Assembly: GCA_977020255.1 (NCBI GenBank) | Contig: CDROCS010001491.1 | Location: 441,500 to 498,000, forward strand | Reading direction: 5' to 3' | Length of the DNA: 56,501 bases | Origin: Obrimoposthia wandeli | Taxonomy: Eukaryota | Shown: piece by piece, positions 1-30,175 of the stretch | How positions within the stretch are numbered: the stretch's first letter is position 1 | Layout: every line of letters begins with the position of its first letter | Position numbers and translations under genes: made by a program | Notes under the pieces: generated by a model | The model's input: only the letters and a program-made list of their open reading frames with translations | The model's database searches: none | Told to the model about the DNA's origin: nothing

Positions 1-1000
1 ACTAGGAAATTGATAAACTACAAGTATAAGTGAAGGAATGTTAAGTTAAAACCTAGCAATATGCAGCTACACACGTATTTTAATAATAAAATTGATTTCT
101 ATTATCATAAAGGATTGATTCAAAAGGAACAGTTATATCAGAAGATGGTTTAGAGAGACTGTCAGTTAAACAAGGAGATCATAAGAACTAAGTTAGCACT
201 AGCTATTTCAAATCCATACATGGCAGCACCACTATTACCTCTAGGCGAAGGAGTATTTGCTAAAACCATGGGATAAGTACTGTATAGTTATAAGTACAAA
301 AACGTAGTGGTACAGTTGAGAAAAACAGAGCGATGCACAAGCGAATTGCCAGTGACGTATAATTTAAAATCACTCTTTGTAGAACCTATCACGAGAATGA
401 TACTTCCTAAAGACACTCCAACAAAAGAAATCAGCTGCTCCAATTATGGCACCTGAATATCAGATGACGAGTGATCTATGGATAACTTTACCTGACCGTA
501 AGCGAACAGCGACTCCAGAGATAATAAAAATGAGGACACTTAAAGAAAAAATGAACTTAAAAGCGGTAAGGAAAATTGAAAATGCAGGTTTATACAATGA
601 GAAAGATCTAAAAACGGCCTGGAACGAAATAATGTTTCCAGTAATAAGGACCAGAGTACTTATGGAAATTGTACATCGTGCATTACCACCAGGAGCTAGA
701 TATGCGAATTTTGATATGATATTGTTGCCAAATCATTTCAAAGAAGCAGCACATCAGACACTTAGGAAAATGTGGGGAAAATTCCTTGTTTTAGGACAAT
801 TATTTTCAATTATCATATAGGTTTTTATATTATAATTAAATTAGTACAGGTAATTATAGCTCAGGTGTTGTCTACATATAGTTTGTACAGGATAACCGGA
901 ATCACTTGGCAACTTATAATTGGATGTTTTCCATTTTTAGCGAAATATCTAATGTATCATCATCACGAGAATGAGTTACGAGCCATCAAGAAGGAGCAAC
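1..1000 (+). pseudogene. Chuvirus/Monjiviricetes-like fusion glycoprotein (env-like), C-terminal half with TM region; disrupted
   Basis: Frame +1 reads DCQLNKEIIRTKLALAISNPYMAAPLL..GEGVFAKTMG*VLYSY...VQLRKTERCTSELPVTY..KSLFVEPITRMI, frameshifts into ORF 446 (MAPEYQM...GLYNEKDL...IMFP...WGKFLVLG) and ORF 772 (hydrophobic FYIIIKLVQVIIAQV...GITWQLIIGCF). Pattern recognised as chuvirus-type glycoprotein; stops at 31, 151, 274. Confidence 0.8.
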
Positions 1001-1304
1001 ATCAAGCTAGAACTATACTACGAGAACCAAAGAACCGCCATGACGACGACAACGACGATAACGATAGTCCAAGAGACTATACAAAAATACCAAATACAGG
1101 ACATCCAAAGATCCCACTAAAAAACAAGAAGGAGCCAACACCAAACCTATATCCAATGAAGGAATTGAAGGAAGAGAAAGAAATGTTCAAGAGAGGCATT
1201 TTAATGATAAGACGGCCTAGAGTGAACTATAATGAGATTCCACAGAAAAAGATTTTAAAAATAATTCCAGAAGAACTCTGAAGTCTAGGATATCTAACGA
1301 GAAT

Positions 1305-1592
1305 CCGAATGATCCACCACAAGTAGCAGTAACAATGAACGGAAAAGAATATCTTACCGATGTCGATACTGGATCTGCAGTATCAGTACTGAGTAAAGAA
1401 ATCTTGTCATCAAAAGAATTAGAGGAAATATGTCCTAGGAAACAAACATTTGTCTACGTAAAGGGAACAGATGTAGTATCAGAAGGAACACTGAAATGTA
1501 AATTAACTATTGATGGAAGAGCATTGCAGATAAATGCCAAAATATTCACAGATTGTGGTAGTCCAGTCATGATTGGAATGGACGTGATATGA
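1305..1592 (+). pseudogene. Retropepsin-like aspartic protease (copy 1)
   Basis: PPQVAVTMNGKEYLTDVDTGSAVSVLS ... SPVMIGMD: catalytic DTG and distal IIGxD-like motif. Confidence 0.85.
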
Positions 1593-1859
1593 ATGTTTGA
1601 AGGAATAATAATAGTACCAAACAACAAGAGTTCAAAGAACAACAGTTGAGTGAGAGAGCTAAAGATGTTGAGAAGATCTACAGATAATGGAAAGACTACA
1701 CTAGTTTATATATAGGAAACATGTACCGGAACAGGAGACAGGAAGTGTTAGTGAGGTCGTTAATTCATTAAGAAGGAGTAAATGACGAACTACAAGCAAT
1801 GCGTAAGAGGGAATTATAATATGACACATTGAGAAACAAGGATCCTTCTAGATTTGAAA

Positions 1860-2870
1860 AGCACAGACGAAGATCACTAGAACCAAATTTTTCAAAATAA
1901 ATATTATGCAAAATGGCGAGAACTGGTTTACAAATGTTAAACGGAGACACGACTGATGACTCTGGTTTTAAAAAAGTAGTACGTTATATAAATTGTAGAA
2001 TGAATTTTAGAAATTGGGAAGACGTATATAACCCAATGAAACTATATAAATTGAAAGCGCCAACATGGCCATTCCTCCTAAACCTGAGAACTGCAAATGA
2101 ACCAGAAATTCAAACTGGGAAAGCACCTGACTTTGACAATAGTGATCAGATTCCAGAAAGAGAAACAGCCCAAATAACAGGCATGTGATAAAAAATAGTC
2201 GAATTGAAGATATATTCGAAGTAATGCGAGAAATAAACGAATGTGACGAACAATATCGAAAAGTAACCTTTGAAGATTCAAGACTTAAAAAGCTGGCAAA
2301 TAAGGGACTATTTGCTATAAAAAAGGATGGTAAAGAAGTAATTAAATGTCATAAATGCAAAAGAAACGAATTATTGATAGATATACTCTTGAGTTACCTA
2401 AAAAAGGTTTACATCATTTACATACATTTAAAAAACAAAAAGAACCAAAAACAGAATGTATAGTTGAATACCAAATAACACGAAAAGATATTTTGGCTCA
2501 ACAAGACACACTAGTAGTGTCATTCGTGAGAAGATTATATCCAAAAGAATCAGACAGGATCAGAGAATTGGTAGAATTGAAAATAAAAATTACACGGAAT
2601 GGATACGGATCAATTTTTGAATTATTACGAGATAAAAATGACAGTACAATTGAACCAAAGGAGAAAGAGTACATAAATGAATTAGAATACATGCTGGAAG
2701 ATCCGGAATGTGCAGTTTGCATGATCAACAAAGTAGAAGTTGCCTTTTTACCGTGTGGACATGTGAGAACATGTCGGAGATGTGCAAACGAAATGTTAAC
2801 ATGTCCGATTTCTAGAAAGATAATAGATCGACAAGTGAGAAATATTAGATCTCACTATCCAAACAAAGGA
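1860..2870 (+). pseudogene. IAP-like module (BIR, divergent BIR, C-terminal RING) inside the retroelement
   Basis: BIR1: RRRSL..KMARTGL...VR[Y]INC-X16-[Y]-X6-[W]PFL, exact BIR spacing with three Zn ligands each one base change away; BIR2-like: YRKVTF..KLANKGLF..VIKCHKC; RING: CAVCMINKVEVAFLPCGHVRTCRRCANEMLTCPISRKII (IAP-type C3HC4). Confidence 0.82.
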
Positions 2871-2929
2871 AGTGGACCGACAAAATGTAATAATTCGATA
2901 AATACAATATACCATATGGGAAATATAAA

Positions 2930-3030
2930 TGGAGCACAGCGACCAGCAGCTATCATTAGAGTCAATAATTTGAAAATAAAAGCCTTAATTTACACGGGCG
3001 CAGTAACATCGATAGTGAGTGAAGAAGCAC
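2930..3030 (+). pseudogene. Second aspartic protease remnant fused by deletion to the RT-RNase H connection
   Basis: IRVNNLKIKALI[Y]TGAVTSIVSEE (D to Y in DTG) followed directly by AQQALEDLKVRLIKAP. Confidence 0.75.
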
Positions 3031-4680
3031 AACAAGCGTTGGAAGATCTAAAGGTAAGACTGATAAAAGCACCGATATTAGCGTTTCCGGATATAAATCG
3101 ACAATTCATACTAATGACAGATGCAAATAACTATGCTGTAGAAGCAGTATCAGGACAAGAGGATAAGTAAGGAAGAAAACACGTCATCGCATATGCAAGT
3201 ATATGGTTAAATAGAGTAGAAAGAGGATACTCTGTTATCGAAAAGGAATGTCTAGCCATAGTATATTCATGTAGACAGTACAGACACTACTTGCTAGGAC
3301 AAAAAGTATTCCTGTATACAGATCACAAACCACTACAGTTCTTGTATAAACATAGAGACGAGATGAGCCAATTAAACCGATGGTTTCTGAAATTAGCTGA
3401 ATTTAATCTAGAAATCTGATATAGAACCGGAAAGTCGAATGGCAACGCAGATTGTTTGTCGAGATTTGCCAATGTAGATGAAAAAGGAAACATTATTCAA
3501 TAAGAAGGTCAAGGTGAAGTCAATGACCAGGGAGGAGAAGCAAATATACAGACAAATTTGCTGAAAACAGTAAAATAGACAAATAAATCATCAAGGAACA
3601 GAAGGAAGATAAAGAATTGAGTCTAATCAAAGAACTGTTAGTGAAAGAAGATCTAAATGATGAAATGACGAGAAAATACTCGATAAAAGAAGGAATATTG
3701 TATATTGTCAACAAAGTCGGAAAGATAGTAGTAGTAATTCCGAAGTCATTGAGAACGGCAGTGATGATCCAGTATCACGATGGAACACTGGGAGGACATC
3801 TGTCAGGACGAAAGACAATATCGAGAATTAAAGAGAAATACCATTGGGATGGTATGGAAGACGAGATAAAACAACAATTCAAAACCAGAATGCTGAAACA
3901 ATAGCACAAATCCTGGTAGAAGAGATAATATTTCGATATGGAGTACCTAGAAAATTATTAATTGATCAAGGAAAGAATTTCACTGGAGAAGTAATAAAAG
4001 CAGTATCGAAGATATTCGGAATTATGAAGTTACAAACTTCACCATATCACCCACAAACTGACGGTCTAGTAGAAAGGTTTAATAAAACTATCTGTATGAT
4101 GATACAATCTTATTGCTCCGATAAGCAAGATGATTGGGATAAGTATTTACCTTCATATTTATATGCTTACAGGAATTCAGTTCGAGAGGTGACGGGCCAC
4201 ACACCATTATATCTGATGTATCTCAGACAGAACAATATGCCAATGGATCTGGAGTGGACCCAACCAATATCTCAGTACCTAGAAACTGAAGAATACATTG
4301 TCGTCATGAAAGAAAGACTACAAGATTCTTGGACTAATACAGGGTTGAAATTGAAATTCAATCAAGAAAATTACAAGGAACAATACGACAAGAAAGCAAA
4401 ACCACACGAATTTAGAGTCGGAGATCAAGTGATGCTATTCTATCTAGTAATCAAACCAATTATATCGTTTAAACTTCATAGACCATACAAAGGACCATAC
4501 AAGGTGATACAGACAACCTCAACAAATTTGAAAGTAATCAACGAGGAGATCAGGAACAAAGAACCGATGATAGTACATGCGAACCGATGTAAACTGGTAC
4601 CGAATAAAGATAATGCGTCACGATATGAGCTACAATCACAGAAATTGAAGCCGAATACCAATACAATTAAACTTACATGA
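3030..4680 (+). pseudogene. Pol remnant: RNase H, integrase Zn-binding region and truncated integrase core
   Basis: Motifs as above; RT core (YxDD) absent; integrase lacks the segment between EDEIKQ and IQNQNAETIAQ. Confidence 0.9.
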
Positions 4681-5204
4681 ATGGTAAGTGATCGAAACTA
4701 CATAAATACGATGACAAATGGTAACGATGAAAAACCAATGATAATTGGTATGCTCAGAATGAAGCACCAAGTGGAAAGAGAAGTAATCCGACACATCGCA
4801 CCACAAGAGATATTAGAAGAAGACGAAGAGATCATAGTCGTTTTCGAAAAACAAAACCGACAGATGTAGCGAAAGAAGTTATTTTGAAAGATGCATTAAC
4901 AAAGAAAATTCTGTGTGAACTTAGAGTGTCATATTTCGATGGAAATACACTAGTCGTGGAACTTCATCAAAACTCCAATGTGTTTATGTCTGAGAAAGTG
5001 ATCATAGAAATCTCACTGACACAATGGCAGAACTATGACAGTACAGAAATAGGACTAGTCGGTCAGGAAGAAAAAGAATCAGCTGGTGGTCATATACTTC
5101 ATGGTACACTGAAAAGACTCAGACAAGAATACCATGATCTGATAATGGTATTACGTAATCCTATGAATATTAAAATAAATTATATTAAATGTAAACATAC
5201 CTAA
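4681..5204 (+). pseudogene. Unassigned accessory ORF(s) downstream of integrase
   Basis: Two near-contiguous ORFs with the same A-rich composition as the element; no recognisable motif. Confidence 0.35.
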
Positions 5205-6079
5205 ATATTTCGAAATTAAATTACATATTTTACCTACAACAATTTCTGGAGTATCAATTTTTGAGAAGTTATTTTTTTTATAATCTTCCATTAAATCTGG
5301 AGATAATTTAATGTTTAATTTATTCCAATTTATTTTATTATCCATGTTATAAAAATTATTATATATAAAATTTTTATATTTAATATGCTGATGCAAAATA
5401 TTCAGACAATTATGTAACATATTTAGACAATTATGTAACACTATATATAAGCAATAAAGACAAAAGAAAAAATAATATTAAAAAAATTTTTTTTTGCCTC
5501 TTCCGGTTTATTCTGGAGGATTCTCTTTCTTGCAGCTCGCCGATTGTCCTCCATCTCCTCTCTTATTTTTTAATCCAGTTTTTTTTAACCAATTCAATTT
5601 TTTTGTTTCACTCCACGATCCGTTGTAGTTCTGCTAGCCACCTGTCCTGAATCTCCACTCTACTATTCCACTCAGTCGCGACATTTGTGTAGAGATTCTG
5701 ATTGAGGAACCTCTTTCTTAAATCCCCTTACTTCTAATTTCTCCTGATATTTTCTTCTATCTTTGTCACGAGACTTTTCATTTTAATAAATTCCATATTT
5801 TAATTATGAAAAGGTTAATAATATATATAAATTTAAGATATTTTTAATCCAATCACATTCAATTAAATTTTATATTTTTATTTATCATATGACAGTTTAA
5901 TAAATCTATAACTAATCATTGCATTTCTATATAAATTTTAAACTTTAAAAAAATTTAAAAACATGTAGAATTATTCCTAATTAATCCAATCACATTCAAA
6001 TAAGTTAACTATTTTTTTCATCTTGATATTTTAATAAACTTAAATATTGTATTTTAATATTACCCTGTATATATGTATT

Positions 6080-7350
6080 GCTCGTTAGGCCATGGCGGGC
6101 CTGAAAGGCACGCGTTGGCCCTTAGATGGCTTCTCAGGCACTTCCTCACTCTGAGGGAGCACTATGAGATTTTCAATTTTAAAGGGTGTTAAATGGGGTT
6201 AATTAGTTTTTCAGGGTGTTGGGCGGGGGTAGGGTGATAGAAAATTTCACTCCACACACATGTACTCCGCACACATACTCAAAATTTCACTCCACATACA
6301 TGCACGGTTTTAAAGGACAGTGGTAGCCCCCCCGGTGGAGGGAGGAGGAAGTGGATTAGATCGGACACATCCACCTACTAACTATATGTTGTATCTCCAA
6401 ATTGTACAAATTCGAATCGTTGCCTTTAAAACTTACAATCTTCAAATTCTATAAATTGTTGTATAATCTCCAAATTCTATATTCATTAAAAGATCCACGA
6501 TGGGGATATATCAAAAATCAAATTGTAACCACTAAATTGTTGTCAAATATATTTTGAGAATTACTTATTGATAAATTGTTTTAGATGAAATTGTGTCACA
6601 ATAATGTTAAGTTGCTTTAAGTCTGCAGTTTTATAAGGGATACATTAGTCCGATATGAAGAAATAATATAAGCAAAACAAAAATGTTTCAGTCTGCTACT
6701 GCTGCAGAAAGTGGGGGTAAATGTCGCCATAGGTAGGGAGACAGCGAAAGGGATAATTGCTACAAAATAGGGCAGATGGAAAAACTGCAATTCCCAAGCC
6801 AGCTTCGACTGCAGAAGGACCAATCCGATTCCGGATCACAGAAGAATATCAGTTCTAGGTCCGTATGCACAATATAAATCCCCACAGCATTTGGGCAGCC
6901 AGAGATTAAACTGCTTTGGAGATAGTGGCAGGGAGTTAGAGAGGGATGGAAGAGGAGTGGGCATTAGAGAGGCGGTCGATGCTGCTGTCCGAAATGTCAG
7001 ATGCAATGGTCCGTTTTGTAGTTTCCGTGCATGGATGATGGAGGAGGATGATAAATGTGATACCGTGAAGGTAGGCAGAGAACGCTACCAGTTGGATCCG
7101 GGTAGTTTCAGAGCGGTTAGGCAACCGATCAGGTCTAGGGCTGCCCGAGACAGAGAGGCCGCTGCTACTGGGTGGTTAATATTTTGAGGGTTAAAACCGC
7201 TTTACTTTTTTGTCAGATTTATCTCTGACATTTTGCCATCTCCCTGATGAGGCCAAGGTAGGCCGAAACGGGTTTATCCCGTCGGAGGTTGACTTAGAAA
7301 AATACCTCCCTGATTAAGGGCACCTCAGCAAAAATGTCAATTTTAATTGA
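6080..7350 (+). mobile_element. Non-autonomous hammerhead-bearing retroelement (Penelope-like pLTR or retrozyme-like), putative
   Basis: GC-richer island bounded by a degenerate hammerhead-like motif (6081-6123) and an intact one (7239-7289) with weakly similar downstream sequence; no RT or GIY-YIG recognised. Confidence 0.45.
7239..7289 (+). ncRNA. Type I hammerhead ribozyme
   Basis: CTGATGA (7244-7250), stem II GGCC/AAGGTA/GGCC, GAAA (7265-7268), stem III ACGGG/TTTAT/CCCGT, GTC cleavage triplet (cut after 7283), stem I ATCTCC (7238-7243) pairing with GGAGGT (7284-7289) with one G-U. Confidence 0.92.
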
Positions 7351-7439
7351 TCTAATTTAATTTATTTTAAAACCCAATTTTTATTGATATAATTTAATTT
7401 ATTTCGAAACCCAACATATATGAAAAATTACTTCTATAA

Positions 7440-7690
7440 ATAACTATAAATAACTCCAATAAGACCATCGTTTTGCTTCAGTAAACCCTTATGTTTATCA
7501 GTTGCCCTTTTCACATTAATAATATTACGCAAATCCTTGCGATTTTTTCGAAGTTTTGATTGTGTTTAACGATATTTTACAAAACTTCAACTGATCTATT
7601 AATTACAAAAGATTTCAAAGATTTCAAAATAGCAGGTCTAAATAGCAGGTGTGGCTTTAATAGAGTTTGAAAGTATAGAGTAACTCTGTT
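7440..7690 (-). pseudogene. Polinton small basic core-like protein (QKGGF-type), decayed
   Basis: NIVKHN..KLRKNRKDLRNIINVKRATDKHKGLLKQNDGLIGV; homologous to ORF 31067 (DIVKGKV...RQKGGFIGALL). Confidence 0.55.
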
Positions 7691-8039
7691 GGACTGCATT
7701 ATTAGAAGCGGTCGATGAGTTTACAGGTTAATTTTGTTAGTTGGATTATTATCATTCTGTTTAGGTGTGTTGTTCAACTTTTACCATTTCCGTAAAATTA
7801 TTTACGTTTTCTTGACTTTTTTGTCAAGCTGACTTTTTCTTAGGCTGAAATATTGATGTTACAACTTTACGTTGCTTAAGTACACAGCTTATAGTCGTTT
7901 TCACTTCATTATTTTTCTTAACAGCTGATTCTCGTTAATTTTAATATAATCATCAGATTTATATTTAGAAGCTGTAGAAAAGGCATCATTTCATTATTAA
8001 AAGACATAATTAATGGTTTTAAACGCGAGTCTTTTGATT

Positions 8040-8600
8040 ATAAACATAGGCATTTGTGAAAATATCTGTTATCACAAGTATATCATTGCGATATCCCGGT
8101 TAAAAATCCAGAAACAAATAACGGGGGATTTCTACGTTACATCTTTAAATGCATCAATTACATATAATCTGATATAGGGAAAAGATTGTCATGCAGCAAA
8201 ATCAAAGACAGTCTGATCTCTCAGATTATAAACTAACATCAAATAATGCAAGTTCAAATTTCTAGTACGATGTTGACTACCTTGATGAAAAATGTGTGTT
8301 GAAACATAGTAACTGTAACATGCATATGCTTGGAAATCGTTGTAAGTATGATTAACACTTGCGCCTTTATTAGCTTTTTCATACAAATCATCAAAAACAA
8401 CAACATTTTATATTATTTTAACATATCTGATCAATTTCCATCAAAACCATCAATGAATTTCACCTGGTTTACAAACACTACCATAATGCCAATAGATTTT
8501 GTCAAATTTATCATAAGCTTGTATTATCTTGTATTATTTGATTTCAAAATGGGTTTTACCACTACCAGATTGTTTTTACATACTTTTTATTAACAAATAC
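8040..8600 (-). pseudogene. Polinton genome-packaging ATPase (A32/FtsK-HerA type), decayed
   Basis: Walker A QSGSGKTHF, Walker B VVVFDDL, then THIFHQGSQHRTRNLNLHYLMLVYNLRDQ and YLFLDF motifs. Confidence 0.88.
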
Positions 8601-8871
8601 AAACATGTTTTATTGAATAATTTAATTTATGAAGATTTTGTTTAAGATAAATATTGAGTAGCTGTCCGGTAATGCAGGACATATTTTCTCGCACGAAGTC
8701 AAGACCACTTCAAATTATCTAGAAGCAATATCTAGGTCATAAAAATAAACTCCCCAACTTTTATTTTGCATTTAAATTTGAAATGTGTTTATCGGTATGA
8801 GTATGTGATTGCCTATCATTGATTAATGATTTTGGCATATCAAGTTTAAAATTTAAAAGGTGTGTTTTCAT

Positions 8872-9326
8872 ATTGAGATAGCTAATAATAATTATAATGG
8901 TTTTGTATATGGAGATGTTAGTCATTTGCTTTACAAACGAGGTAAATAGTGTGTATGTTTAAAAATTGCACAGATTATACGCTTGTTATTTTCAGATCAG
9001 ATGATTATTCAATTTGATTTCTTTAATTATTATTAGGGAATTGAAGTATAATTGATTGTATGGTGCCATTTGGTAGAGAACGTATATATTATCCAACTAA
9101 AATAAATGTTAACTGTATTCAGTCAGTCACAGAAACTGCAAACCTGAGTAAAATAATCAATCTCATCAAATTATCTTAGTTCATGAGTTCAACATGCATG
9201 TTTAAACCAGAAATATTTCCATCAGTTAGATGTCTCAAGTACAATCCTCCACATGTAAATATATTTAGAAGTAATACAGTCATTATTTTCCGATTAACTA
9301 GTTTAGACTATTACCTTAAGATTTAG
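8872..9326 (+). pseudogene. TBP-like protein, Polinton-borne, copy 1
   Basis: DYTLVIFRSG...CIQSVTETANLSKIINLIKL...CMFKPEIFPSVRCLKYNPPHVNIFRSNTVII, alignable by eye to both TBP repeats (TALIFSSGK; IQN...IRL...YEPELFPGL...LIFVSGKVV). Confidence 0.75.
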
Positions 9327-10135
9327 CAAAGGTATGATTTTTCAAGACGGTGTCGACTTTAGATAATGAGATAACTTGTATATTTTTTCGAACTACATTA
9401 GAAAATTGGTCACGCAACGATTAACCAATGAAACATCATAAGAAAATTTGTACTGTATGTTCATTCATTATAAAAATCTATGTATCTAATAAACACACGG
9501 TGGTTAAACAGGGCGAAGATATTATAAATTTTGATAAAACTCCATTGGATAAACCAGTTGTTCGTAATAATGATTAAGATCATATTGTAATTTCTATATG
9601 ATCGATTATTCCACATGTATATATTTGAATTAATTTATATCAGTATTGTGTTTGTCAGAAAGTAGTACGTCATCTTGATTGCATTGCAGCTATTCCGGGA
9701 GAAATTTCTTATATATCAGAGGGACCTAGTATAGGTATCAAGAATCCATTTATTGCCGAATAATATTTAATATGATTAAACTATTATTTAAATAGACACT
9801 CGCCAGATAAATCTGTTGAAACGTTATTACAGTCTAAATAGAATAAAGTCAGTTTAGTAAATATTTCTCTAACACGGGGTAAACATTAAGACTCAACATG
9901 TGAATTTCTAATCAATTTAACATTTTTACAATTAAAAACTGAAGACAGGGTTGTAAATTATCTTGAATATTTATTACCAGATCCAGAATGTGTTGTTTGC
10001 ATGTTAGACATGATTGAAGTAGCATTCTTACCATGTGGACACTTAAACACATGTAATAAATGTTCAGTCGCTTTATTACATGCCTATATTGTAAGAGATT
10101 TATTATACAGGAATGTATATCAGATTTCATGGTAA
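9315..10135 (+). pseudogene. IAP-like gene (BIR + RING), Polinton-borne
   Basis: DLAKV*FFKT..DNEITCIF[F]RTTLENWSRND*PMKHHKKICTVCSFI fits BIR C-X2-C-X16-H-X6-C with the second C mutated; RING DPECVVCMLDMIEVAFLPCGHLNTCNKCSVAL, then frameshifted CLYCKRFI. Confidence 0.85.
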
Positions 10136-10269: not shown

Positions 10270-12285
10270 ATGTCAAGGCATTTGTCTGTACATCGAGAAT
10301 TTGTAAAAAAAGAAACATACACTATCAACTTTTCATTAAATTTTATGAGCAAAGTTGGTTGTATGATTCCTGAAGCAGAGACTGCAGCCAGTAAAGTATG
10401 CGAAAACGAAATATTGATGCAGAGCTGTCGGCGCTTGATGTATCCAAGGTCAAACCTAAAGCTTCATTACATCTACTCTTTCATTTTATTATGGTTTATA
10501 TTATCATAAAAGTCTCCTTATTAAAAAGTATAATGCCATAGCTACTGTTGCTACTCTTGGGAAATTTATTTTATACTCCAAACTTTAGAGAAATATTTAT
10601 CTTTAACTGCATATGCTGAATTCTCTGCAGTTTTTGAGCGGCTCTTTAAAATAATTAATGACATATTTAAATGGCCAATTACACAGTCAGTGTTCCCAGT
10701 TTCGATTAATGATAAGGAGATTTTTCAATATAATTTGTGAAAACTTTCACAGATTTACAAAATACAACATAAATCAACCCATAACTGCATTCGAGAGTGC
10801 ACGTCTTCAAGACTCTAATGAGGTACTTACATTTTGGGATTGTAATTGTCAAAATCTTGTTGAGTCTATGCTTTTTTATATGAAGTTAGACATTTATTTA
10901 TTGGCTGATTTGTTTGAGTTTTTTCCTGTAAAATCTTTAGCAGAAGATGGGCTAGATCCCATGCATTTTTTTAATTTACTTGGTCTTTCATGGGCAACGG
11001 CAATAAAAACTCCTTATATTAATGTTGAGTTATTGCAAGATCCTATGATGTATCAAATGTATGATTATGATATACGCGGTGGAATGACTTTTGTCAACAA
11101 ACATCATGTTGTCAAAAATCAATCCATGGAGATTCTGTACATCAACATAATTAATTTGTATAGGTGGGCGCTTACTCAACCTCTACCACATGCCAACTTT
11201 AAGTGGATGTGTGATGTGGAAGAGTTGAATAAGTTGATGACAGATTTGCCTACTGTTGATACAGTTTCGTCAAATGTCGGCTATTTGGTTGACGTCGATT
11301 TAACAATCCCTCCTAATGTGCATGATTAATTGTATGATCTTCCAGTGCACCTATTCATCAATGTCCACCTAATTTAAAGGTTAAAAAATTATTGTTAACA
11401 CATGAAGACAGGTTGAATTACGTGTTGCATTGGCGGCTTCTTCAATTCTATATAAAGTAAGGAACAAAATTTACTCGAATTAATCGTGCTATAAGCTTTA
11501 GTCAAAACCTTTTGTTTAAAGACTATATTTAGAAAAATTCTAGAAAACGTTATTTGGCCTGTAGCAATTCAATCGACATTTAAAAATCTTTGAAAAATCT
11601 GTAAAGGACTTGCGGAAACGTATTTGTTTACGATTTTGCTATAATGAGTGCAAACTAATAACATATATTACCAAGTACAACTTCAAGCATATTTACCATT
11701 GCAGATTACTTGGTAAATTTTTTTTATTAGGAAAACAGAGTATTGTCACGATCGATTGAGTTATGTAAATCAAACTGTATTAGGTATTTCAAACCCTATA
11801 TTGTATGGGCTCCAATATATTGAATTATATAAATATCGCAATGAATTCAACTGTGAATTCAAACACTGACTCTTTCTTTTTACAATCTAGAAATGTTAGT
11901 TTACAATATCTGTTATTTCTGAAAATGTTTAGGGATAACTTACTTGATACCCATAAATATCCTGTTAATCATCATTTACACTGTAGGGTCAGATTTTGTA
12001 TGATGACTGTATTTTCCTACGCCTTTAATGCTACAGTTTACATACATCTAATAATACATATTCAATGAGAGCAAAGGGTGTGGGAAGAAACAATCTCACC
12101 ATGAGGCCTACCGGAAAGTGTATGATACTGTATGTAATGAAAGCGTTGAGCAAACTAAATTTATTTTAAGACCCAATCAACAGTATTTCCATAAGTCAAC
12201 AAAAATTGTTGTGAGTAGTTATGACGACAAACGCTGTTGGGTAGAAAAGAACGCTGGTCTGGCTTATGGACATTTCCGAATTTAA
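10270..12285 (+). pseudogene. Protein-primed DNA polymerase B (pPolB), decayed
   Basis: YMKLDIYLLADLFE...GLSW...IRGGMTFVNKHH...INLYRWALTQPLP...GYLVDVDL; C-terminal RAKGV...SSYDDKRCWVEKN..LAYGHF. Confidence 0.92.
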
Positions 12286-12551: not shown

Positions 12552-12918
12552 TTAACCGTTTTGTAACGATAACCATAAAATACATAAATGTCCACAGTTT
12601 CTCGTTGCTGGATCCTGGTATTGTATCATGTTGTAAAATACTCTTCTTTGTCCTTTTTGAACAGTCGAAACAAGCTTATGGGGATAATACGTTGCAAGTA
12701 GATCAAATACATGTATTGTCCACTCTTTAACATAAATAGCTATACAATGTTCTATTGGTACATTCAAAGTGTGAGTATTGATAATGTAATCTCCATGTTG
12801 AAAAATGGAATCATATCCATTGAATTTATCACCCAGTACATTTTCTTTTGATTCTATTACTTGTACTGAACTAAATTAAAATGAATAAATATTAATTATA
12901 AAAAGGATCTTACTTCAT
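12552..12918 (-). CDS. Polinton adenain-like cysteine protease; open after splicing a 43-nt intron (exons 12918-12914 and 12870-12552)
   Basis: MN|SVQVIES...IINT...IEHCIAIY...FD...QYQDPATRNCGHLCILWL (H, D, Q, C catalytic set); intron GTAAG...TTTAG; starts just after the MCP stop. Confidence 0.78.
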
Positions 12919-12919
12919 T

Positions 12920-13330
12920 CTATAATATGACAGTTCTGTTTTCGTTGATTTGTATTTCCCAATCAAATACACCGTAAATAAGCACTGTAGTAGGATTTGA
13001 TAAAGCTGTATTGAATTGAATTTCTAAACGTAAGTTTACATCTTTAGGTTGTTGGCATTGGTTTATGTCAAAGTCTGGCGCTAAAACAAATGTGAAGAAC
13101 GGACAGCTGCTTTTAAACTCAAAGAAATAAATACCATTGTTTATATTTTTTATCTAGTTGACCAATATTTTGAATAATAAATTTCGTATAAGCCAAAGCA
13201 AAAATGTTACTTTCGTAATATGTTTTATAGCTTTTACGATAATTGCTATTTCTTAAAAGTGTTACTGAATCCACATTAAGATTATCAAATTGAGTTACAT
13301 ATGTCGTATAATTTCCTAGAAACTTTGCAG
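12920..13330 (-). pseudogene. Polinton major capsid protein, C-terminal part
   Basis: FLGNYTTYVTQFDNLNVDSVTL...FTFVLAPDFD...NLRLEIQFNTALSNPTTVLIYGVFDWEIQINENRTVIL*. Confidence 0.82.
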
Positions 13331-13397
13331 TTTTTTTAAAATGATGTTAGGATTAGGATTTTAAAAATTTTCAAAGAAATAATTAATTGTTATATAA

Positions 13398-14896
13398 TGT
13401 AATAAATTCTTGAAAGCAAGGTTGAAAATGAAATAAATTTTAAATGGAATTATAAATTAAATAATAAAATTAAGAATTATTTTGGGACCTTGAAAGTTCA
13501 TGTATAGTGTGAGATGTGTATAAAAGTTTAGGGCCCGGGAAATTACAGGCATAAAATGTCAGAAAATACATTTTCAAAGAAAAAGCCAAGAAGATAAATC
13601 AAGAAGAAATTATCCAGTGGTCAACAGAAGAAAATCAAAAGAAAAGAAAATAACAGCCTGGTGGGAAAGAAGCAGCTGTTGATCGAGAAGCACTTACCTG
13701 GAGAGACGATCGAGACAGACATCGATTAACTCTGAGAAGAAGCCAGCCGGCATCCATTTAGCACAGTAAGGGCACTTAGCCTAATTGAATTACTTGATTT
13801 ATAATTTAGGAACTTATATAAAACAGAATTCAAGAGTCATCACACACAAAATTTCTCGAAAAATAATTCTCGGAAAATTCTCTGGAAATTCAAAAATTGA
13901 GAAACTAGCAGACTCCGAAAATCAATTGAACGAGAATAAAAGAAAAATCACCAAGCAGAAACTACCAACGAACGCAAGAAGCCGGAGGTGATTAATTTTC
14001 AGAAACAGAAGGAGATTAATCGGTTAACAAAACCCAGGTAGGAAATCAATCTCCATCGATCAACAGAGCACGATGAACTCAACGGAACCAGCAGTCGAAC
14101 TCAGTGAACCGCCGGACTAGTCGTGTGATCTCGAAGAGAGGCTTCTCGAAAAGAGATCACGGTAAGTTCAGAGTGTGAGCGTGTTGTTGAAGGTTATCAA
14201 AAGATAACGAATTTGAAATAAGGTCATTGGAGAAACAATAATTTAATATAAATTGCAAGTGTCCATATTTGAATTAAAGTTGTCCATATTTTTGAATTGA
14301 AATAATTTGATAAAATCGTCTATATTTTGGAACTGAAATAATCTGATAAAATCGTTTATATTTTTGACTTGAAATAATTTTATAAAATAGTCTATATTTT
14401 ATTTGATAACGTTAAAAGAGTTAACGTTCAGTTAAATTGCCCACATTTTGTACGATAAATCATTAAAAGAATTTAAAGCTTAATTTGAATTTGATAAGAC
14501 AAATTAAAATCGATACGTAAGACATCCCCATTTGTGCGAAGTTGTGAAGAGAAATTAGGACTAGTTGTTGTCAATTTTTAGAAACGTAACTTAGTGTGTT
14601 TTAAAGAATACAGTTTCCTATAATTAGTCAGCGTTGTTTGAACAAAACCCCTAGAATCAAACAAGCACCAGATACTCCATACATTACACGACACTAAGGG
14701 AATTTTTCCAGTGCCGTTTACACAGCTCTTCACACATCTCCACAACAACAACAACAAAACCTTCAGAATAGACATTGAGACAGGTAAGCACAATCTAAGT
14801 AGGCCACAAACAACTGCAAGCACTACTTCTATAGAACTCACGTTGGGGGCCTCCATACGAGGATCTATTTAAGAGTTTCAAATAGAAACCCCAACA
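13398..14896 (+). mobile_element. Solo LTR-like element (family A, copy 1) inserted in the Polinton MCP gene
   Basis: TGTAA...CAACA ends; near-TSD ATAA/ATGA; MCP frame resumes on both sides; shares CTTGAAAGCAAGGTT, AAAATCGATACGT and terminal GAAACCCCAACA with the copy at 26327-29302. Strand is arbitrary (purine-rich strand). Confidence 0.75.
14298..14400 (+). repeat. Short tandem repeat (~36 bp x3) inside the LTR
   Basis: TGAAATAATTTGATAAAATCGTCTATATTTTG repeated with variation. Confidence 0.8.
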
Positions 14897-15600
14897 ATGA
14901 TATTAAAAGGAATTTCCGCAATTTTACGTCACCAAAATTTTGATCCTTATTAAGAGCTTACGTACCCGTACCCAAAGAGTATGTTTTTAAGTTTAGTTTT
15001 TCTAATAAGATACCAAGCATTGTTTTTTTCATTATTATATTATGTGCCATTAAAACAGATTCCTCGGTTTTAACTCTTTGGACATAGTTTCGCATCCAAA
15101 ATATCAAGTCTACGTTTTAGAACGTCTGTGCTTATCAAAAAAAATCATTTATTGCGTTTCAAACGAAGATATACATTGTACATTAACACCAGGAATTTAA
15201 TATTAAGGTTGTCCAAAGACGTTTAGTCTCATAGACCCACACATTTCGTACGCAATCCATTCTTTACGAGTTGCTACCGTTTTATCAAAACCAATGGTTA
15301 CCAAATTAATATTTCGAGTATCAGTACTATAATTCAATAGATTTTCAATCAAAGCTTTATGAGCATGGGAAGAATTACCATCTCGATTAGTTACTATTAT
15401 TTGAACATAAGGCTAAGTATCATTCAAATCTAAATAATTACTATTGGAACCAATTATATTAAATTCTAAATCGGTTAAAGTCGTTCCTGAAATATTAACT
15501 AAAAATATTTCTTCAAAGGAAGCATTATTTACAACTACTTGCGGAAGAGGTTTATCAAATATTGTTCATTCAACTTTCTTATATTTGTTTATATTAATTT
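14897..15600 (-). pseudogene. Polinton major capsid protein, N-terminal part
   Basis: IFDKPLPQVVVNNASFEEIF..LEFNIIGSNSNYLDLNDT...IENLLNYS...LDILDAKL..RVK. Confidence 0.82.
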
Positions 15601-15906: not shown

Positions 15907-16936
15907 TTATTGCCGGATTCGTAATTTTGTTTTTTTTAAATGTATTATTAAACTTGTCTTGGTTCCGTATGTGAAATCTATTAGTTGTCCGTAATCATCT
16001 CTATTATTTACCTCAAAATTGTTTATAGACAAGAGAGCAACTGGAAGATACGTCGGTTGATCTATACTAATACCGATAACTTCTTTAATGCTAGTTTGAC
16101 TTTGAGATATCCTTATTGTTCTCAAAAGTGGAACTCGTAGTCCTCCTACAAGCGTTGGTTCTATTAAACTAGTATAAATATATAACCGATTAATAGCATT
16201 TAAAAGTTTTGCCCGATTTTTAGCTTTTATGGTTTTTACTGTATGTGTTTCAAAGGTCTTTCCAGATAAACCTAGGTTTTTAGCAAGTTTATCATCAAAG
16301 GAAACCCGTTTTATCTTTACTGTAAAAGTCGTTTTATCATTTTTTTAATGTTACACATTTATTTCAATATTCACTGAATTCCTTCATTATAAATTTGCAT
16401 AAATTCACTTAACTATCTATTTTATAATATTTTTAAAACCTTTTCAGTTCCAGTACATATTTAGATATATTTTCAGGTAACAGCAGTTTGCTACTTTACT
16501 AGGAAAATATCTAACAATTTAGATGAGACAATATCTTGTTTAAAATTACCTATCGCATATTCATTAACAAAACCGAATTGAAGAGCTTCTTTTTATATTC
16601 AAAAGTCCAATGAATAAATTCTTATCGATTTTTAAGTATGACTTTGTTATTTTCCTATAATACTTTCACTTCTTTATCTATACAATTGAAATATAATTTT
16701 CCTTTGCTATAAAACCCAATCATAACATTATTTGCTTCATCATTTTGTAAACGAAATATGCGATTTTTTGGTGATAGTAATTGGAGAATAATAAAAAGAA
16801 AATTCTGTTAAAGCTGCTTCCTATTCTCCTTGTAGATTTATAGGATTTTCCCAATCGATAATAAAGCTACTAACATCATTCTCTGGCTGAGTCTTCAGCA
16901 TCCGTTACTAGGTAAAACCATATACGAAAATTTCAT
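15907..16936 (-). pseudogene. Polinton minor capsid protein (penton), decayed
   Basis: N-terminal YMVLPSN...ENDVSSFIIDWENPINLQGE*EAALTEFSF; C-terminal LYIYTSLIEPTLVGGLRVPLLRTI...PTYLPV...RDDYGQLIDF; ATG overlaps the integrase stop (ATGA). Confidence 0.82.
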
Positions 16937-17510
16937 ATTATATTAGATGCTGATATCCAAGTGGTATCTGAATAACCATTCCATTTAACAAAGTATTGTT
17001 TATGTTTACCATTACCTTAGATTTTAATATTTTTTGAATACGTTTATTTTATATGACTTGTAGTTCTTGCTCGTAAAATTTACCCTGAATGATATTAGTG
17101 TCATCATATTGAATAGTATACATTATTGGATTACTTTTTGGATCAATTTTATTTATACAAAATATTTCATCGCTCCAATTCTGATCAAAAATTTTGATAA
17201 ATGGAGTAGAGCTCATTTTAGAAATTCGAACATATTCGTTTTTCTTATATTTAGTTTTTTTTATATTTTCTTTTTTATTCCTGTCTATCCAAATATCCAT
17301 AGAGTTTCTATTAGTAACATCAACAGGTCTTATTCCCTTGAAACTTCTATGTTCAGAGTGATTATATGCATGTACTATTTTGGGCAAAACTTGGATCCTT
17401 TTTTATTTCCTTCTTTTGTGAAATACTTTTTGATTCAATTTCTTAAAGTACGATTAAATCTTTCTACTACTGCTGCTTTGTACTTTATGTTGTCAGTTTT
17501 ATATTAGGAA
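16933..17510 (-). pseudogene. Polinton integrase C-terminal half with chromodomain
   Basis: KAAVVEKFNRTLRN...LPKIVHAYNHSEHRS..IRPVDV...VRISK...NWSDEIF...IQGKFYEQELQ; chromodomain IQKILK...QYFVKWNGYSDTTWIS. Confidence 0.9.
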
Positions 17511-19459
17511 TTATATTAAAAATTACTCAATAGAGATAAATAAAAAACTTATAATTTGAAATAATAATATCATAGCCTACATTGAAATATACTTTTGTTA
17601 AATGAATAGTATTATAAATAAATGAGTTAGATGATTAGAAACTTAAATTTTGCGTTTCATTTTAACATTTTTTGTCATTTTGGAAAGTCAAATTAAGATT
17701 AAAATTTTAAAAATTAATGATAATTTTTTAAAAATTTTAAATTAATAGGTACAGTTTAACATTTTAACTTTAATATATTATTTAACTAAATCTTAACAAA
17801 ACATATATAATTCATAATTTTAAATGAATTTTTAAATTTATAACAAAGTTTTTTTTTAAATTAAGAACTTATCATTTTCACAAGAAACATGATTTGATGA
17901 ATGCCTATGATTTCTAAATGTATATTAATAGTTGAAGAAAAAAATTTAATTAATTTTTATTATTAGCATATTGTTTGGAAAGATTAATTTAAGCACTATT
18001 TTAAAATTAAAGAACTAAATACGTTAAAGTATTTTCGAAATATTCTTTTAAGATTTGTTTTTTAAAATCAGTCAATTTCTGATCTTTTTAAAAATTGAAT
18101 AAACAATATTTCAGTTATAAAGACAATATTAATAATTTATTTTTATTAAATCAATCTTCATAAATGCTAATATTTTTTATAGAATTTCTTTTTGAAAACT
18201 AATTTTATCCTTATTTTTATTTATAAAATTATCAACTATTTATTTTTTTAAATGTATTATGGTTATATTAGAATCAAAATGGGAATTCTAAAGAAATAAT
18301 TGTAAATTGATACAGATATATATTATAAATTCAATTTCATATAAATTGATTACTTTAAATTTTATAGTTTTTTCTTTATAATTCCTACTAAAAAAATGTT
18401 TTTTTTAATATAAATTTAATAAATTCATATTTATTTAAATTTTAGTAAAATTATAATAGAATAAAGATTTTTTTGAAACGGGAATTCAAAAAATAAAATA
18501 AATAATAAAGTGCCTTCAATTTAAATGACAAAGAAATGATACAAAACGTCAGGAAATATATTTTTAGTCATTTTAAAACCTAGTCAGTGATATATTGTTC
18601 AAAGTTACCGTTATGAAAGTAAAATATGTATTATTTAAAACAGAATCAGAAAATTAGAGTGATACGTAGGAATTTTTATGAAAAAAATGTAATTTTTTTG
18701 ATAAAGTTGATCAAAAGTGTCGGTACTTATTTAGAATTCTCCAACTTTTAATTAATATTATTATAATAAAAATATCATTTTAATCATATGAAATATTTTA
18801 AAATTTGTCTATATTATACTATTAAAATTTTTATTTATCTTTCAAAATTTAAATTTTCTTGAAGTTAGCACTTTTAAGCCAGTTGATGTATATAAGTTTA
18901 GGTTGGCTTTTTTATATATTCAGATAAATTCATTTAAATTGCATCTAAATAAAAAAATTCGTCATACAATTTTAAAATCATATGAATTTTAATTACTTAA
19001 TAAAATTGAGAATTGATTCTGAATAAAAACCAAAATGACCGATTACCGTTTAATCATTGCTTTTCAATTTCTTGTTCAACATGTATATTAAATAAATAAA
19101 ACGAATATGTTTTTTAAAATGGTAAAAATTTATTAAAAAATATCTGATTTTTTTAAAAATGTAAATAATTAACACAATATTACTTTGAGATTTATTTGAG
19201 GGCACTGTGAAATTATAGGATCACGTTTCTTTAAAGCATATAGAGTTGCCACTTTTTATAGAATATCAATAAATAAACATTCACAACGAGTCAAACAAAA
19301 ATAAAACTAACTTTAAAAAAATATTATGAAAATTTGAATTATTTAAAAACCCATATGAACATAATGTGTAATTTAAATCGTAAGGCTATTTTAAATATAT
19401 TCTTTAAAAAAGATTTTAAGATACCAACCTAATAAAAATCTAAGTCAGGCTAGAGTAAA

Positions 19460-20968
19460 ATGTCAAATGTAAACAATTCCATGCTATTTTCCTTATCGTC
19501 CGAAGTAAATGGCATTGACAAGTGTGCAAATGATATCGACAATGTATTTCCAATTAGAATAAAGTCAGAACTTAAAGCATATAAGAAATACCAAAATAAG
19601 TTGAAGTTTAAAAGTCATAGATGTTCATATAATTTGTCTAACATACCGATTGATAATTTGTGGTTAGAAGTCCAGACAGCTAAGTTTCAAAAAACCCAAA
19701 AAAATAATCAGGCTGGGTTTGTAAATGTATTCAACAATCTTAATAATTATACCTCGGAAGCTCAATTATTTTTATTACCACTGATATACTTTAAATTTTC
19801 GTATGAGACTTTAGAGTATAATGAAATCAGAACAGAGTTTTTCCCTATAATATCTGATTGTACCGAAAAATATTACGTGTTTACTGAGCATTCTTTCCTG
19901 TCCAGATTGGAATCTAATATCAAAAATGTTAATTCTAATCTGGTGTATGAAATTCAAACCAAAATAGCCCTTATCCAGATTCCGAGTTGTTTCCACACAT
20001 ACTCGTATCCCAAATATATCAGAGATACCATATTCAAAAAGAAAAGGTTGATTACTAACCGTAATTTTACTCCTCCGATGAATTCTAATGCCTGCCTCTC
20101 TTATGAATCTCCGGAAACTGACAAGTCTTCAAATAAGGTCTGCAGCCTTTTCAATGCCGGCTCTATATCTTCATCGATGGGCTCAGACATTGATAAGATC
20201 CAGTTTGGTGCCGTGTTTGCCAACCAAAACAATATCCAAAATCCGGAGCTGTTGAATTCATTGCCAAAGCTCTGGAACCAGAATCTTTTGATATCAATTG
20301 ACTACATTCTTCAAGCATCTGTTATTCCAAAATCGTGGATTATTCTCTTTCAGTTTTCGGACTATTATGTAGATGTCATCATACAATCATTGCTTCGCGT
20401 TTTCATTTTAGAGTCAAACTCGTTCTGTAAAGTCAACCGAAAAACCAAGAAACGGAATATTCGCAGTTCAAGCTATAACATAATTCTCCGGAATTCTCTA
20501 CGAAATCTCTTCAGACAGGTTCAATCAAGCATCATGGCGTCAACTTTAAAGGTGGCTATCGATGATTTCTTTGAAGAGAATTGTTTGAAAGGGCATATCT
20601 TCTCAAAACATGGTGTGTGCAGGAAGAAATTAACTGAGAAAACATTCGGAAGAAAGGAACTGTTGACTAAACATTCCACTGACTTAGACCGCAGATTGAA
20701 ATTAAAGAGGGACTTTCAGAACAGTGGTATTAAGAATCGACGATTGACGAAGTACAGCTCTGCGTTTCAGTATGCAAAAGAAAGAGGCAAGTGCAACTCT
20801 CAAACTGTTCTAAAAGGAATCGAAAGGGCGTCAGAGCAAGATCTGAATTCAAAGAATCGGAACACGTTAGCCTCGAAATTCAGAATGGAAGGTGATGTCA
20901 CCAATCATTTGACACAGAAGCTGCGCAAAAAAGCTGTTAGTTTGTGTACTTTCTTTTTGACTTTTTAG
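19460..20968 (+). CDS. Hypothetical protein (502 aa), no recognised domain
   Basis: Longest non-repetitive intact ORF, AAAATG start context; a possible terminal intron from GTTAGT (~20936) to TTTGTAG (~21014) would end it ...KKA|IFSM*. Confidence 0.6.
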   Translation: MSNVNNSMLFSLSSEVNGIDKCANDIDNVFPIRIKSELKAYKKYQNKLKFKSHRCSYNLSNIPIDNLWLEVQTAKFQKTQKNNQAGFVNVFNNLNNYTSEAQLFLLPLIYFKFSYETLEYNEIRTEFFPIISDCTEKYYVFTEHSFLSRLESNIKNVNSNLVYEIQTKIALIQIPSCFHTYSYPKYIRDTIFKKKRLITNRNFTPPMNSNACLSYESPETDKSSNKVCSLFNAGSISSSMGSDIDKIQFGAVFANQNNIQNPELLNSLPKLWNQNLLISIDYILQASVIPKSWIILFQFSDYYVDVIIQSLLRVFILESNSFCKVNRKTKKRNIRSSSYNIILRNSLRNLFRQVQSSIMASTLKVAIDDFFEENCLKGHIFSKHGVCRKKLTEKTFGRKELLTKHSTDLDRRLKLKRDFQNSGIKNRRLTKYSSAFQYAKERGKCNSQTVLKGIERASEQDLNSKNRNTLASKFRMEGDVTNHLTQKLRKKAVSLCTFFLTF

Positions 20969-21954: not shown

Positions 21955-22245
21955 AAAGATTATACTATAGTTATATTTCCATCAGGTATTATTATTACTA
22001 TTATTAATATACTACTATTTAAGCTATTGCATAATTATGAGTTGCAAACAAACATGTTAAAAATATAGAAATTGAATGATTTCAATCTCTAAGTATCCAA
22101 GTAAATATCAACAAAAAAGTTAATTTGTGTAAGGTATCTGTGAAATTGGGAAGAAATTGTATGTTTGAACCAGAATTGTTTCCAGCACTCGGAATTTTAA
22201 AAGGTTTACGACTCAATTGTACAAGACTAGTGGCCCTAATAATTT
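21955..22245 (+). pseudogene. TBP-like protein, copy 2 (partial)
   Basis: KDYTIVIFPSG..CIIMSCK...FQSLSIQVNINKKVNLCKV..GRNCMFEPELFPAL. Confidence 0.78.
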
Positions 22246-25997: not shown

Positions 25998-26326
25998 AAG
26001 ACCATTTTCAAATATGGCGCTATATATCTTACCGTTTAAAACAAAAATAAGGTTACCAAAGTCTTCCTTGCGGAGTCTCATAAGAGGGGAGCCCTTCATC
26101 CGAAGACCTGGCAGCACCTTTTGCAAAGAACATATATATTTAGATTACTTTTTATAGTAAAAAGACAAACACACTAAAATCAATATATATTAAACTTTCT
26201 TATATCCTTTAGTAATTCTCTAAATAAGTTTCTGTCTCCCAAATCCTTGAATTTGAACAAATAAAATCTAATATTTGCTTTTAGGAAATTCTTCTTCAGA
26301 GTAATTATATATTCTTTTGAACATAT

Positions 26327-29302: not shown

Positions 29303-29715
29303 CTATAAATTATTTAATTTTTTAATAATTTCTCCATTCCTAAATCTAACAATATGTTCATCAGCTTTAATAAAAGCACTAAAGTTTTCAACTTTGATAT
29401 CCGATTTCATTCCTTTGTAAATAGCATTAATATTATTAATGTCCGTTTGATGGATCCTCAAGATGACATAATCAAACTTGGACTTTCTTGGCATAACATA
29501 GTATTTAAATCCAAAGGCATCTTGAGGAAATTCATTGTATAACTGAAATAAGGTACAGATTCTTTAAATAGGTCTTCTTTTTCTTCTCCATTGAAAATAT
29601 CTTCTAATTCTGTATCATCAGAATCTATCGGAATTGGGTTAACTTTGGTTGTATTTAAATTTTCATTCTTCCTCTTCTTCGTGCTCTTCAAAATCGGGTT
29701 TTGTAAATTGAACAT
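29303..29715 (-). pseudogene. ORF-Y, unknown Polinton-associated protein (5' part; 3' part at ~26130-26326)
   Basis: Two overlapping minus-strand ORFs, continuation beyond the LTR, and a homologue at ~21700-21950. Confidence 0.6.
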
Positions 29716-29838: not shown

Positions 29839-30175
29839 ATGAAAATAGTCAATATAAATTATAAAATTAACTTTAAGGGAAGTGTTAGTCACTTACCTTT
29901 TCGATCAAAGAAACATATACAATATGTTGAAAAGCCAAAGGATCATACTATAGTTATATTTCATCTAGGTATTATTATTATTACTACTATTTAGGCTCAT
30001 GCAGAATTATGGGTTGCAAACAACCAATCAAACATGTTCAAAATATAAAAATTGGATGTATTCAATCTATAAGTATCCTAGTGAATATCAACAAGAAGGT
30101 TTATTTGTATAAGATATCTATGAAAATGGGTAGAAATTGTATGTTTTAACCAGAATTGTTTCCAGCACTTGATAT
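29839..30175 (+). pseudogene. TBP-like protein, copy 3
   Basis: MKIVNINYKINF...KDHTIVIF..G|SCRIMGCK...CIQSISILVNINKKVYLYKI..GRNCMF*PELFPAL; 26-nt GT-AG intron at 29969-29994. Confidence 0.8.

Follow-up and report, generated by a model that had tools for sequence, protein, structure and literature searches.

Genes for inhibitor of apoptosis proteins (IAPs) have been captured by baculoviruses, which provide a comparison case for the IAP genes found on mobile elements. For the planarian giant Gypsy retroelement Burro/GYPSM1, a BIR domain and an in-frame envelope (env) gene are already in print (PMC6431247), and Burro1 is reported to have gained a BIR-RING region that shields stem cells from caspase-mediated death (PMC13465017, citing Lee et al. 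2026, Dev Cell). An anti-apoptotic ubiquitin-ligase activity of the Burro1 of another planarian is related there at second hand. IAPs also occur among the accessory genes of Polinton-class viruses (PMC8502044; leafhopper preprint, bioRxiv 10.64898/2026.07.28.741253), and both element classes are targets of PIWI-interacting RNAs that become de-silenced during planarian differentiation (PMC8532177). Here, we analysed a 56,501-nucleotide stretch of the genome of Obrimoposthia wandeli (assembly GCA_977020255.1, contig CDROCS010001491.1, positions 441,500 to 498,000, forward strand), hereafter referred to as the window, which contains one IAP copy in the remains of what its domain layout identifies as a Burro-type giant Gypsy and a second one in the remains of a Polinton. 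The source of both element IAPs is a single-copy IAP gene of the host that contains introns.

Each half of this arrangement is of a known kind; the new part is that one traceable host IAP is carried jointly by both element classes. A first-pass annotation of the window had presented the combination as an undescribed system, which does not apply to the Gypsy half, as BIR and env of Burro are published (PMC6431247) and a functional study is cited in PMC13465017. In the literature searched, which included few subscription papers, we found no report of a planarian Polinton IAP or of its sharing with Burro, though either may be described by Lee et al. 2026 or in the supplements of PMC8502044. Like Burro/GYPSM1, the retroelement described here encodes a polyprotein of ~5000 residues with gag, a possible ubiquitin-like domain, env ahead of pol, BIR and RING, is flanked by long terminal repeats (LTRs) and is present in very many copies (PMC6431247). 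Unlike the published element, which exceeds 30 kb (PMC6431247), it measures 22 kb and is likened to Burro by layout. Its IAP is placed between two aspartic proteases and two dual-specificity phosphatase (DSP) domains follow the integrase, features that section 7 of PMC6431247 does not mention. The second element shares with Polintons, Mavericks and adintoviruses a protein-primed DNA polymerase B (pPolB), integrase, ATPase, capsid-like genes, protease, terminal inverted repeats and an IAP, as judged from sequence only. It differs in that a particular gene of its own host can be named as the source of the IAP, that a retroelement carries this IAP as well, and that genes for a TBP-like protein and a catalytically dead DSP accompany it. 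The IAPs themselves resemble those of the XIAP/cIAP type in having a BIR whose zinc ligands are intact, UBA-like helices and, at the C terminus, a RING; unlike these, they possess just one intact BIR, the second being degenerate.

In the window, the RING of the Burro IAP (ELEYMLEDPECAVCMINKVEVAFLPCGHVRTC, from position 2679; Pfam zf-C3HC4_3, E 4e-11) and that of the Polinton IAP (YLEYLLPDPECVVCMLDMIEVAFLPCGHLNTC, from position 9959; zf-C3HC4_3, E 3.5e-8) are alike in 22 of 32 amino acids and 66 of 96 nucleotides; the Polinton copy also matches Pfam BIR (E 4.9e-7). Thus, the two RINGs lie where the first-pass annotation had seen them and can indeed be aligned in DNA, as is also evident from blastn, which aligns the window Polinton RING with an unbroken Burro copy at 74% across 101 nt. 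The RINGs of 123 other animal IAPs share 12.9 ± 1.7 (maximum 17) and 12.5 ± 1.4 (maximum 15) of the 32 residues with the two window copies. The match between the latter lies beyond every one of these and is therefore specific, that is, greater than between unrelated IAP RINGs. The similarity was also said to extend upstream of the RING, and it spans the entire length of the IAPs when unbroken copies of both elements are compared. From the BIR signature NW....PMK that was thought to be shared, the pattern W-x5-PM[KR] is retained as general across these IAPs, but the host has it as well; NW is confined to one Burro subfamily, and unbroken Polinton copies in the alignment carry EW or GW in its place. 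The host IAP RING is about equally near (22/32 to the window Polinton copy, 18/32 to the window Burro copy), that is, about as near as the RINGs of the elements are to each other, and the RING match alone is therefore no proof of exchange. Likewise, both window copies are broken and belong to separate insertions, 6.5 kb apart, of families with very many copies, so that their proximity is not evidence for a link.

The host gene was located via its relatives. A HMMER profile of six element proteins was compared with 1.84 billion representatives, and among the best 150 matches three (P0002, P0032 and P0064) align as one full-length stretch. The N-terminal part of P0002 yielded one match among 33 candidates in the genome, at G000:C369, where an IAP gene with six exons, five GT-AG introns of 0.9–4.5 kb and an open frame of 443 residues resides; a first coding exon may be missing from the model. 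Its third exon, used as query, has one match in the genome, indicating a single copy. No splice joints were seen at this gene in four runs, of which the one with full cover spans the introns, so that the exon model is built on splice sites and reading frame. The stretch L126:2182-4544, which includes the third exon, is joined across by contigs of three runs at low depth, which reflects either an allele or an artefact caused by a repeat. An extended N terminus, an intact BIR1 followed by a degenerate BIR2, a UBA-like region and a RING whose C-terminal extension is the same throughout are common to host, P0002, Burro and Polinton family A; the IAP of Polinton family B lacks BIR2. Comparison of intron content, which the first-pass annotation had proposed, gave five introns for the host and none for the element IAPs, whose copies are continuous through all five positions. 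No flanking or untranslated-region homology was detected between host and elements; one 3' score was equalled by 3 of 200 shuffles and concerned AT-rich, non-colinear sequence. Ahead of the Polinton start codon, five residues seemed to match as well, but this was dismissed, as the DNA does not match and a neighbouring subfamily lacks them. While HMMER did find relatives, a word-based homologue search with the Polinton IAP gave 0 matches among 421 candidates. No related loci were confirmed in 68 stretches of viral contigs nor, for P0032, in 156 stretches of metagenome contigs. P0032 and P0064, which are of the same IAP lineage, are single-ORF (open reading frame) calls on contigs of 16 kb and 1.9 kb, respectively, and possibly represent further element-borne copies. 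The host gene is a RING-type IAP in a likely free-living flatworm, contrary to the statement that such IAPs were lost in Platyhelminthes (PMC13159474, whose supplement is without Schmidtea, Dugesia and Macrostomum). A planarian xiap, which may be the present gene, is among the hits of an RNA interference study (PMC4993586).

Both element IAPs are under purifying selection, with dN/dS values of 0.11–0.19 in four Burro pairs and 0.27–0.35 between Polinton subfamilies and families. BIR1 of Burro evolves fast between subfamilies (pN 0.21 and pS 0.25, compared with 0.045 and 0.24 downstream), and the subfamilies L141 and L026 are 64% identical in BIR1 and 90% downstream, which suggests relaxed or diversifying selection on this domain. 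The predicted structure of the Polinton A protein comprises a confident BIR1 (pLDDT 82–92), a three-helix UBA-like region and the RING. Its BIR1 superposes on the BIR structures of XIAP and cIAP at about 2 Å, and the UBA-like region aligns weakly with the UBA of cIAP1. Together with the C-terminal RING, the BIR pattern CxxC-x16-H-x6-C, apparent from invariant ligands, Pfam and the predicted fold, characterizes these proteins as RING-type IAPs. Host and elements both lack the glutamate that precedes the BIR histidine in 377 of 470 other BIRs. Taken together, a host gene with introns, homology over the full length, a single clade, intron-less element copies, purifying selection and two different genomic settings form a core of which we are highly confident.

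For phylogenetic analysis, 11 planarian-type rows were compared with 24 outgroups picked from the 123 animal IAPs. The planarian-type clade received support of 100/100, and host, Burro and Polinton grouped apart from P0002 at 98–99% (98/95 in one tree), which agrees with the earlier notion of one IAP lineage carried by Gypsy and by Polintons; the origin of the two copies from different host IAPs, which would have spoken against that notion, gives way to the single source gene. The Polinton IAPs are monophyletic, and synonymous sites between host and elements are saturated. The first-pass annotation had offered either gene exchange or parallel capture of one host IAP. While a single host IAP lineage in both elements stands, monophyly of the element copies without the host is not established, as the approximately unbiased (AU) test rejects neither elements-together (p 0.28) nor host+Polinton (p 0.48); over the tests, p for elements-together ranges from 0.28 to 0.42. 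When five fixed trees were compared using the full alignment, only the grouping of the host with P0002 versus the elements was rejected (p 0.011–0.017). Exchange or separate capture is, at present, about an even bet.

To a single capture followed by early transfer between Burro and Polinton of an IAP with which each element likely sustains its host cell, we assign an even chance. Elements-together was best in two trees with added subfamilies and another alignment, at 67% versus 30% of bootstraps (counted ignoring P0032 and P0064) and 51% versus 48%; in the three trees where it was counted, its bootstrap was 14%, 67% and 51%. At 31 informative sites where both Polinton families agree, Burro+Polinton is favoured by 15, host+Polinton by 10 and host+Burro by 6 sites; several of the 15 also occur in P0032 or P0064 and may therefore be ancestral. 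The UBA-RING part of the IAP also favours elements-together, by 5.5 log units, though without significance. Further points counted for a transfer are a Burro-related LTR that sits inside a Polinton in this window, and a second cargo family held in common. Polinton family A carries a DSP domain without the catalytic cysteine motif, which is present in 9 of 10 stretches of this family and in 0 of 8 of family B, and Burro carries two DSP domains after its integrase, one with the catalytic motif and one without. Among 122 sequences, comprising 120 library phosphatases and the two Burro domains, the Polinton DSP matched Burro DSP1 best, with 74 bits as compared to 52 for the next. In a tree with five host phosphatases, Polinton DSP and Burro DSP1 are joined at 56% bootstrap, and Polinton DSP and Burro DSP2 at 86% once the long DSP2 branch is included. 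None of these five, which were placed in the tree from nine host loci obtained by motif search, joins the element DSPs. In our view, the shared phosphatase may tilt the balance weakly towards exchange. Phosphatase loci are found at L060:1621-2034 and L032:3937-4398 (minus strand).

Several observations weigh against an exchange. Host+Polinton was the best grouping in two analyses (70/82, and 83/78 with elements-together at 14%). The elements are no closer to each other than to the host: over 321 columns, identities amount to 123 for host and Polinton A, 112 for host and Burro and 110 for Burro and Polinton A. Polintons retain the stop position and last C-terminal residues of the host, where Burro differs, and Burro retains a fuller BIR2 and the N-terminal extension of the host, including residues that precede the point at which the Polinton ORF starts. 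Thus, each element keeps host features lost in the other, at opposite ends; neither present form can be the parent of the other, and any transfer therefore took place early. Moreover, an acidic residue that stands two positions ahead of the BIR proline in 441 of 470 other BIRs and in 51 of 51 Burro copies is missing from all 43 Polinton copies and from the host, a loss shared by these two. The phosphatase tree is weak, with long branches and an incomplete host set, and family and protein searches for a host source of the phosphatase gave Burro copies only (30 of 30 and 12 of 12 loci inspected). Finally, dN/dS within Polinton families is not always low (0.31; 0.63 in one family-A pair; 2.65 in a family-B pair with very few changes).

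The host+Polinton trees, the host features kept at opposite ends and the identities to the host, which equal or exceed that between the elements, fit parallel capture, in which Burro (probably first) and a Polinton ancestor would have taken retrocopies of the same host IAP at different times; both would have kept them because a block of cell death helps any element replicating in the same cells. Uptake of IAPs also recurs in Polinton-type viruses of other animals (PMC8502044; bioRxiv 10.64898/2026.07.28.741253). We consider such independent acquisition a serious contender, if slightly short of an even chance, for it is opposed by the elements-together trees, the excess of sites shared by Burro and Polinton and the phosphatase as second common cargo. 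In addition, no free host retrocopy that could represent an intermediate turned up in the genome search with the third exon, though old ones would have decayed. A mosaic, in which an early shared capture was followed by replacement of the Polinton BIR1 part with host cDNA, appears very improbable. It would account for the opposite leanings of two partitions, of which the N-terminal/BIR1 part favours host+Polinton while elements-together is favoured by the UBA-RING part, and for one host exon that is identical to family B in 29 of 41 positions. However, neither partition rejects the tree of the other (AU p 0.13–0.40), and the fast evolution of Burro BIR1, which weakens the contrary signal of this domain, explains the pattern without recombination. 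That the Polinton-side IAP is a Burro piece fallen into a Polinton here, as its location 6.5 kb from the Burro copy amid a nest of broken elements might suggest, or a case of generic RING conservation, is refuted: this IAP occupies a constant position in two Polinton families, accompanied by core genes in 17 of the 18 stretches inspected, has start and stop codons of its own and is under selection, and the similarity is above that of all 123 other IAP RINGs.

Under the reading of a single capture with early transfer, the mRNA of the host BIR-BIR*-UBA-RING IAP (BIR* being the degenerate domain) was likely reverse-transcribed once; the absence of introns, together with the lack of a reverse transcriptase in Polintons, points to such a step through RNA. 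The retrocopy would then have passed between the Burro and Polinton lineages before Burro fused the IAP into its polyprotein and before Polintons trimmed it. In Burro, the flanking proteases likely cut the IAP from the polyprotein, while Polintons would express it as a free gene, from a separate ORF that is surrounded by genes for capsid, ATPase and integrase. In each case, a putative ubiquitin ligase derived from the host likely dampens cell death during replication of the element. The acidic residue missing from the Polinton BIR is presumably a binder of antagonist peptides, going by the XIAP structure, and the Polinton IAP is therefore predicted to be less sensitive to such antagonists. A more tentative idea, which we consider less likely than not, is that a retrovirus-like element and a Polinton traded a two-gene survival kit, consisting of the IAP and a MAP-kinase-type phosphatase, within one genome, where hundreds to thousands of selected anti-death copies would face one host gene. 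If so, the stem-cell benefit credited to Burro1 may come from Polintons too. Beside the Burro IAP reported to protect stem cells, a second, unrelated element class holds the same host IAP as a selected free ORF. It can thus be tested directly if mutualism between host and transposon is a peculiarity of Burro or if several elements can fill such a niche. Moreover, this is one of the rare cases in which a possible passage of genes between retroelements and DNA virus-like elements can be studied within one genome.

The left element (window 40–5159) is 82–89% identical in DNA to an element at G000:C197, which has 1.5-kb LTRs (TG...CA, 94% alike), a 4-bp target duplication and an open frame of 4985 codons. 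In the unbroken Burro-type ORF, Pfam domains follow in the order zinc knuckle, Monjiviricetes-type fusion protein, aspartic protease, BIR, RING, second aspartic protease, reverse transcriptase, RNase H, integrase and DSP. As planarian Burro elements are described with this layout (PMC6431247), the host is probably a triclad planarian. The env-like fusion protein (PF24664, E 2.6e-94) follows zf-CCHC, in frame between gag and pol, and the IAP is likewise in frame between the two proteases. These flanking proteases each carry a DTG motif (L033, L032; G000:C197). Of the ubiquitin/SUMO-like and BCL2-like domains that characterize Burro elements ahead of env, the former gave weak ubiquitin-like matches (E 0.002) and the latter no match, and in the scanned part of the polyprotein neither ankyrin nor MATH was matched. 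Since both copies measured are ~22 kb long instead of >30 kb, we use the name 'Burro-type' rather than Burro1; no published Burro sequence came up in the searches. In the genome, there were 16,527 first-look candidates for further copies, and the 150 that were scored are all at least 88% identical. No divergent Burro family with an IAP of its own was among the loci retrieved; young copies saturated these searches. In the window, the broken env-like part (40–1245, plus strand like the following; tblastn to the unbroken copy, PF24664) is succeeded by the first aspartic protease (1236–1592; Asp_protease_2), the decayed IAP N-terminal extension with BIR1 (1697–2182; Pfam BIR in unbroken copies), the frameshifted, degenerate BIR2 (2185–2454; by comparison with unbroken copies) and the UBA-like region with the RING (2463–2860; by alignment and, for the RING, Pfam). 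After the start of the second protease (2940–3025), ~1.5 kb including most of the reverse transcriptase are missing, and the copy stops after RNase H, integrase and the start of the post-integrase region (3026–5159). The solo LTR mentioned above (13345–14896, plus strand; TG...CA, 4-bp target duplication ATGA) lies inside the Polinton capsid gene, and its ends are 72–76% identical to the LTRs of the unbroken Burro-type copy. More Burro-related LTR ends occur near 26324–26663, 29166–29355 and 30689–30760.

The Polinton part of the window begins with remnants of the packaging ATPase (8022–8569, minus strand; by similarity to other copies) and of a TBP-like gene (9033–9311, plus strand; Pfam TBP E 0.006, and 8e-13 in an unbroken copy), which immediately precedes the IAP remnant (9320–10132, plus strand). 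The latter comprises BIR1, a BIR2 remnant, the UBA-like region and the RING, is interrupted by several stops and belongs to an old subfamily closest to family A. A pPolB remnant (10607–12282, plus strand) probably stems from a Polinton family younger than that of the IAP. It is followed, on the minus strand, by a cysteine protease-like ORF (12552–12875), which has 44–46% identity to the same gene in four of four Polinton stretches tested, a major-capsid-like gene without Pfam match that is split by the solo LTR (12923–15577), and remnants of a penton-like gene and the integrase (15931–17485; by similarity to other copies). Capsid, protease and polymerase lack Pfam matches and are labelled by motifs and gene positions that we take to be diagnostic. 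The stretch from polymerase to integrase is 81–84% identical to a third Polinton family, so that fragments of several Polintons are probably nested in the window.

Elsewhere in the genome, the Polinton IAPs are stand-alone ORFs of 333 (family A) and 299 residues (family B). At least two Polinton core genes accompany them in 17 of 18 IAP-centred 20-kb stretches, the exception being a tandem repeat at C3084. Family A has the order IAP, TBP-like, DSP-like, ATPase, integrase, penton, major capsid and polymerase, and family B the order TBP-like, IAP and ATPase, followed by the same core. One family-A copy of 16.4 kb has terminal inverted repeats of ~690 bp and a 6-bp target duplication, and those of a family-B copy measure ~600 bp. 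In the copy at C1887, pPolB, integrase, packaging ATPase, protease and the major and minor capsid genes all lie between the terminal repeats; the ATPase was identified by Pfam Pox_A32. Among the best 30 BIR loci of the genome, 28 are of the Polinton type, one is survivin-like and one BRUCE-like (the last two labelled by eye). The TBP-like gene is a regular cargo of families A and B, beside the IAP (L042:666-1106), and further remnants of it are present in the window at 22062–22235 and 29991–30170. At least five Polinton IAP copies are arranged in tandem at ~0.95-kb spacing in L048:5253-10000 (G000:C3225). The tandem 7.15-kb unit at L101-L102 (G000:C3084) contains a family-B-like BIR fragment and an ORF that looks DnaJ-like by eye; Polinton core genes are absent from it. 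Several Polinton cargo genes have, upstream, a short AAAAATAGA motif and then a TATA-like run, possibly an element promoter; such sites are located before the IAP and before the DSP-like ORF at G000:C1887, and downstream of the IAP in L069.

With regard to the assembly, single-ORF rhodanese matches on contigs such as C253, C506, C665 and C372, in a list that was obtained in the search for a host phosphatase and is mostly bacterial-looking, suggest the presence of bacterial contigs. In the rest of the window, a 504-codon ORF (19454–20968, plus strand) has no Pfam match, units of ~75 bp form a tandem array at 26938–28439, and an exon of a host axonemal dynein light chain gene is located at 52483–52881 (minus strand).

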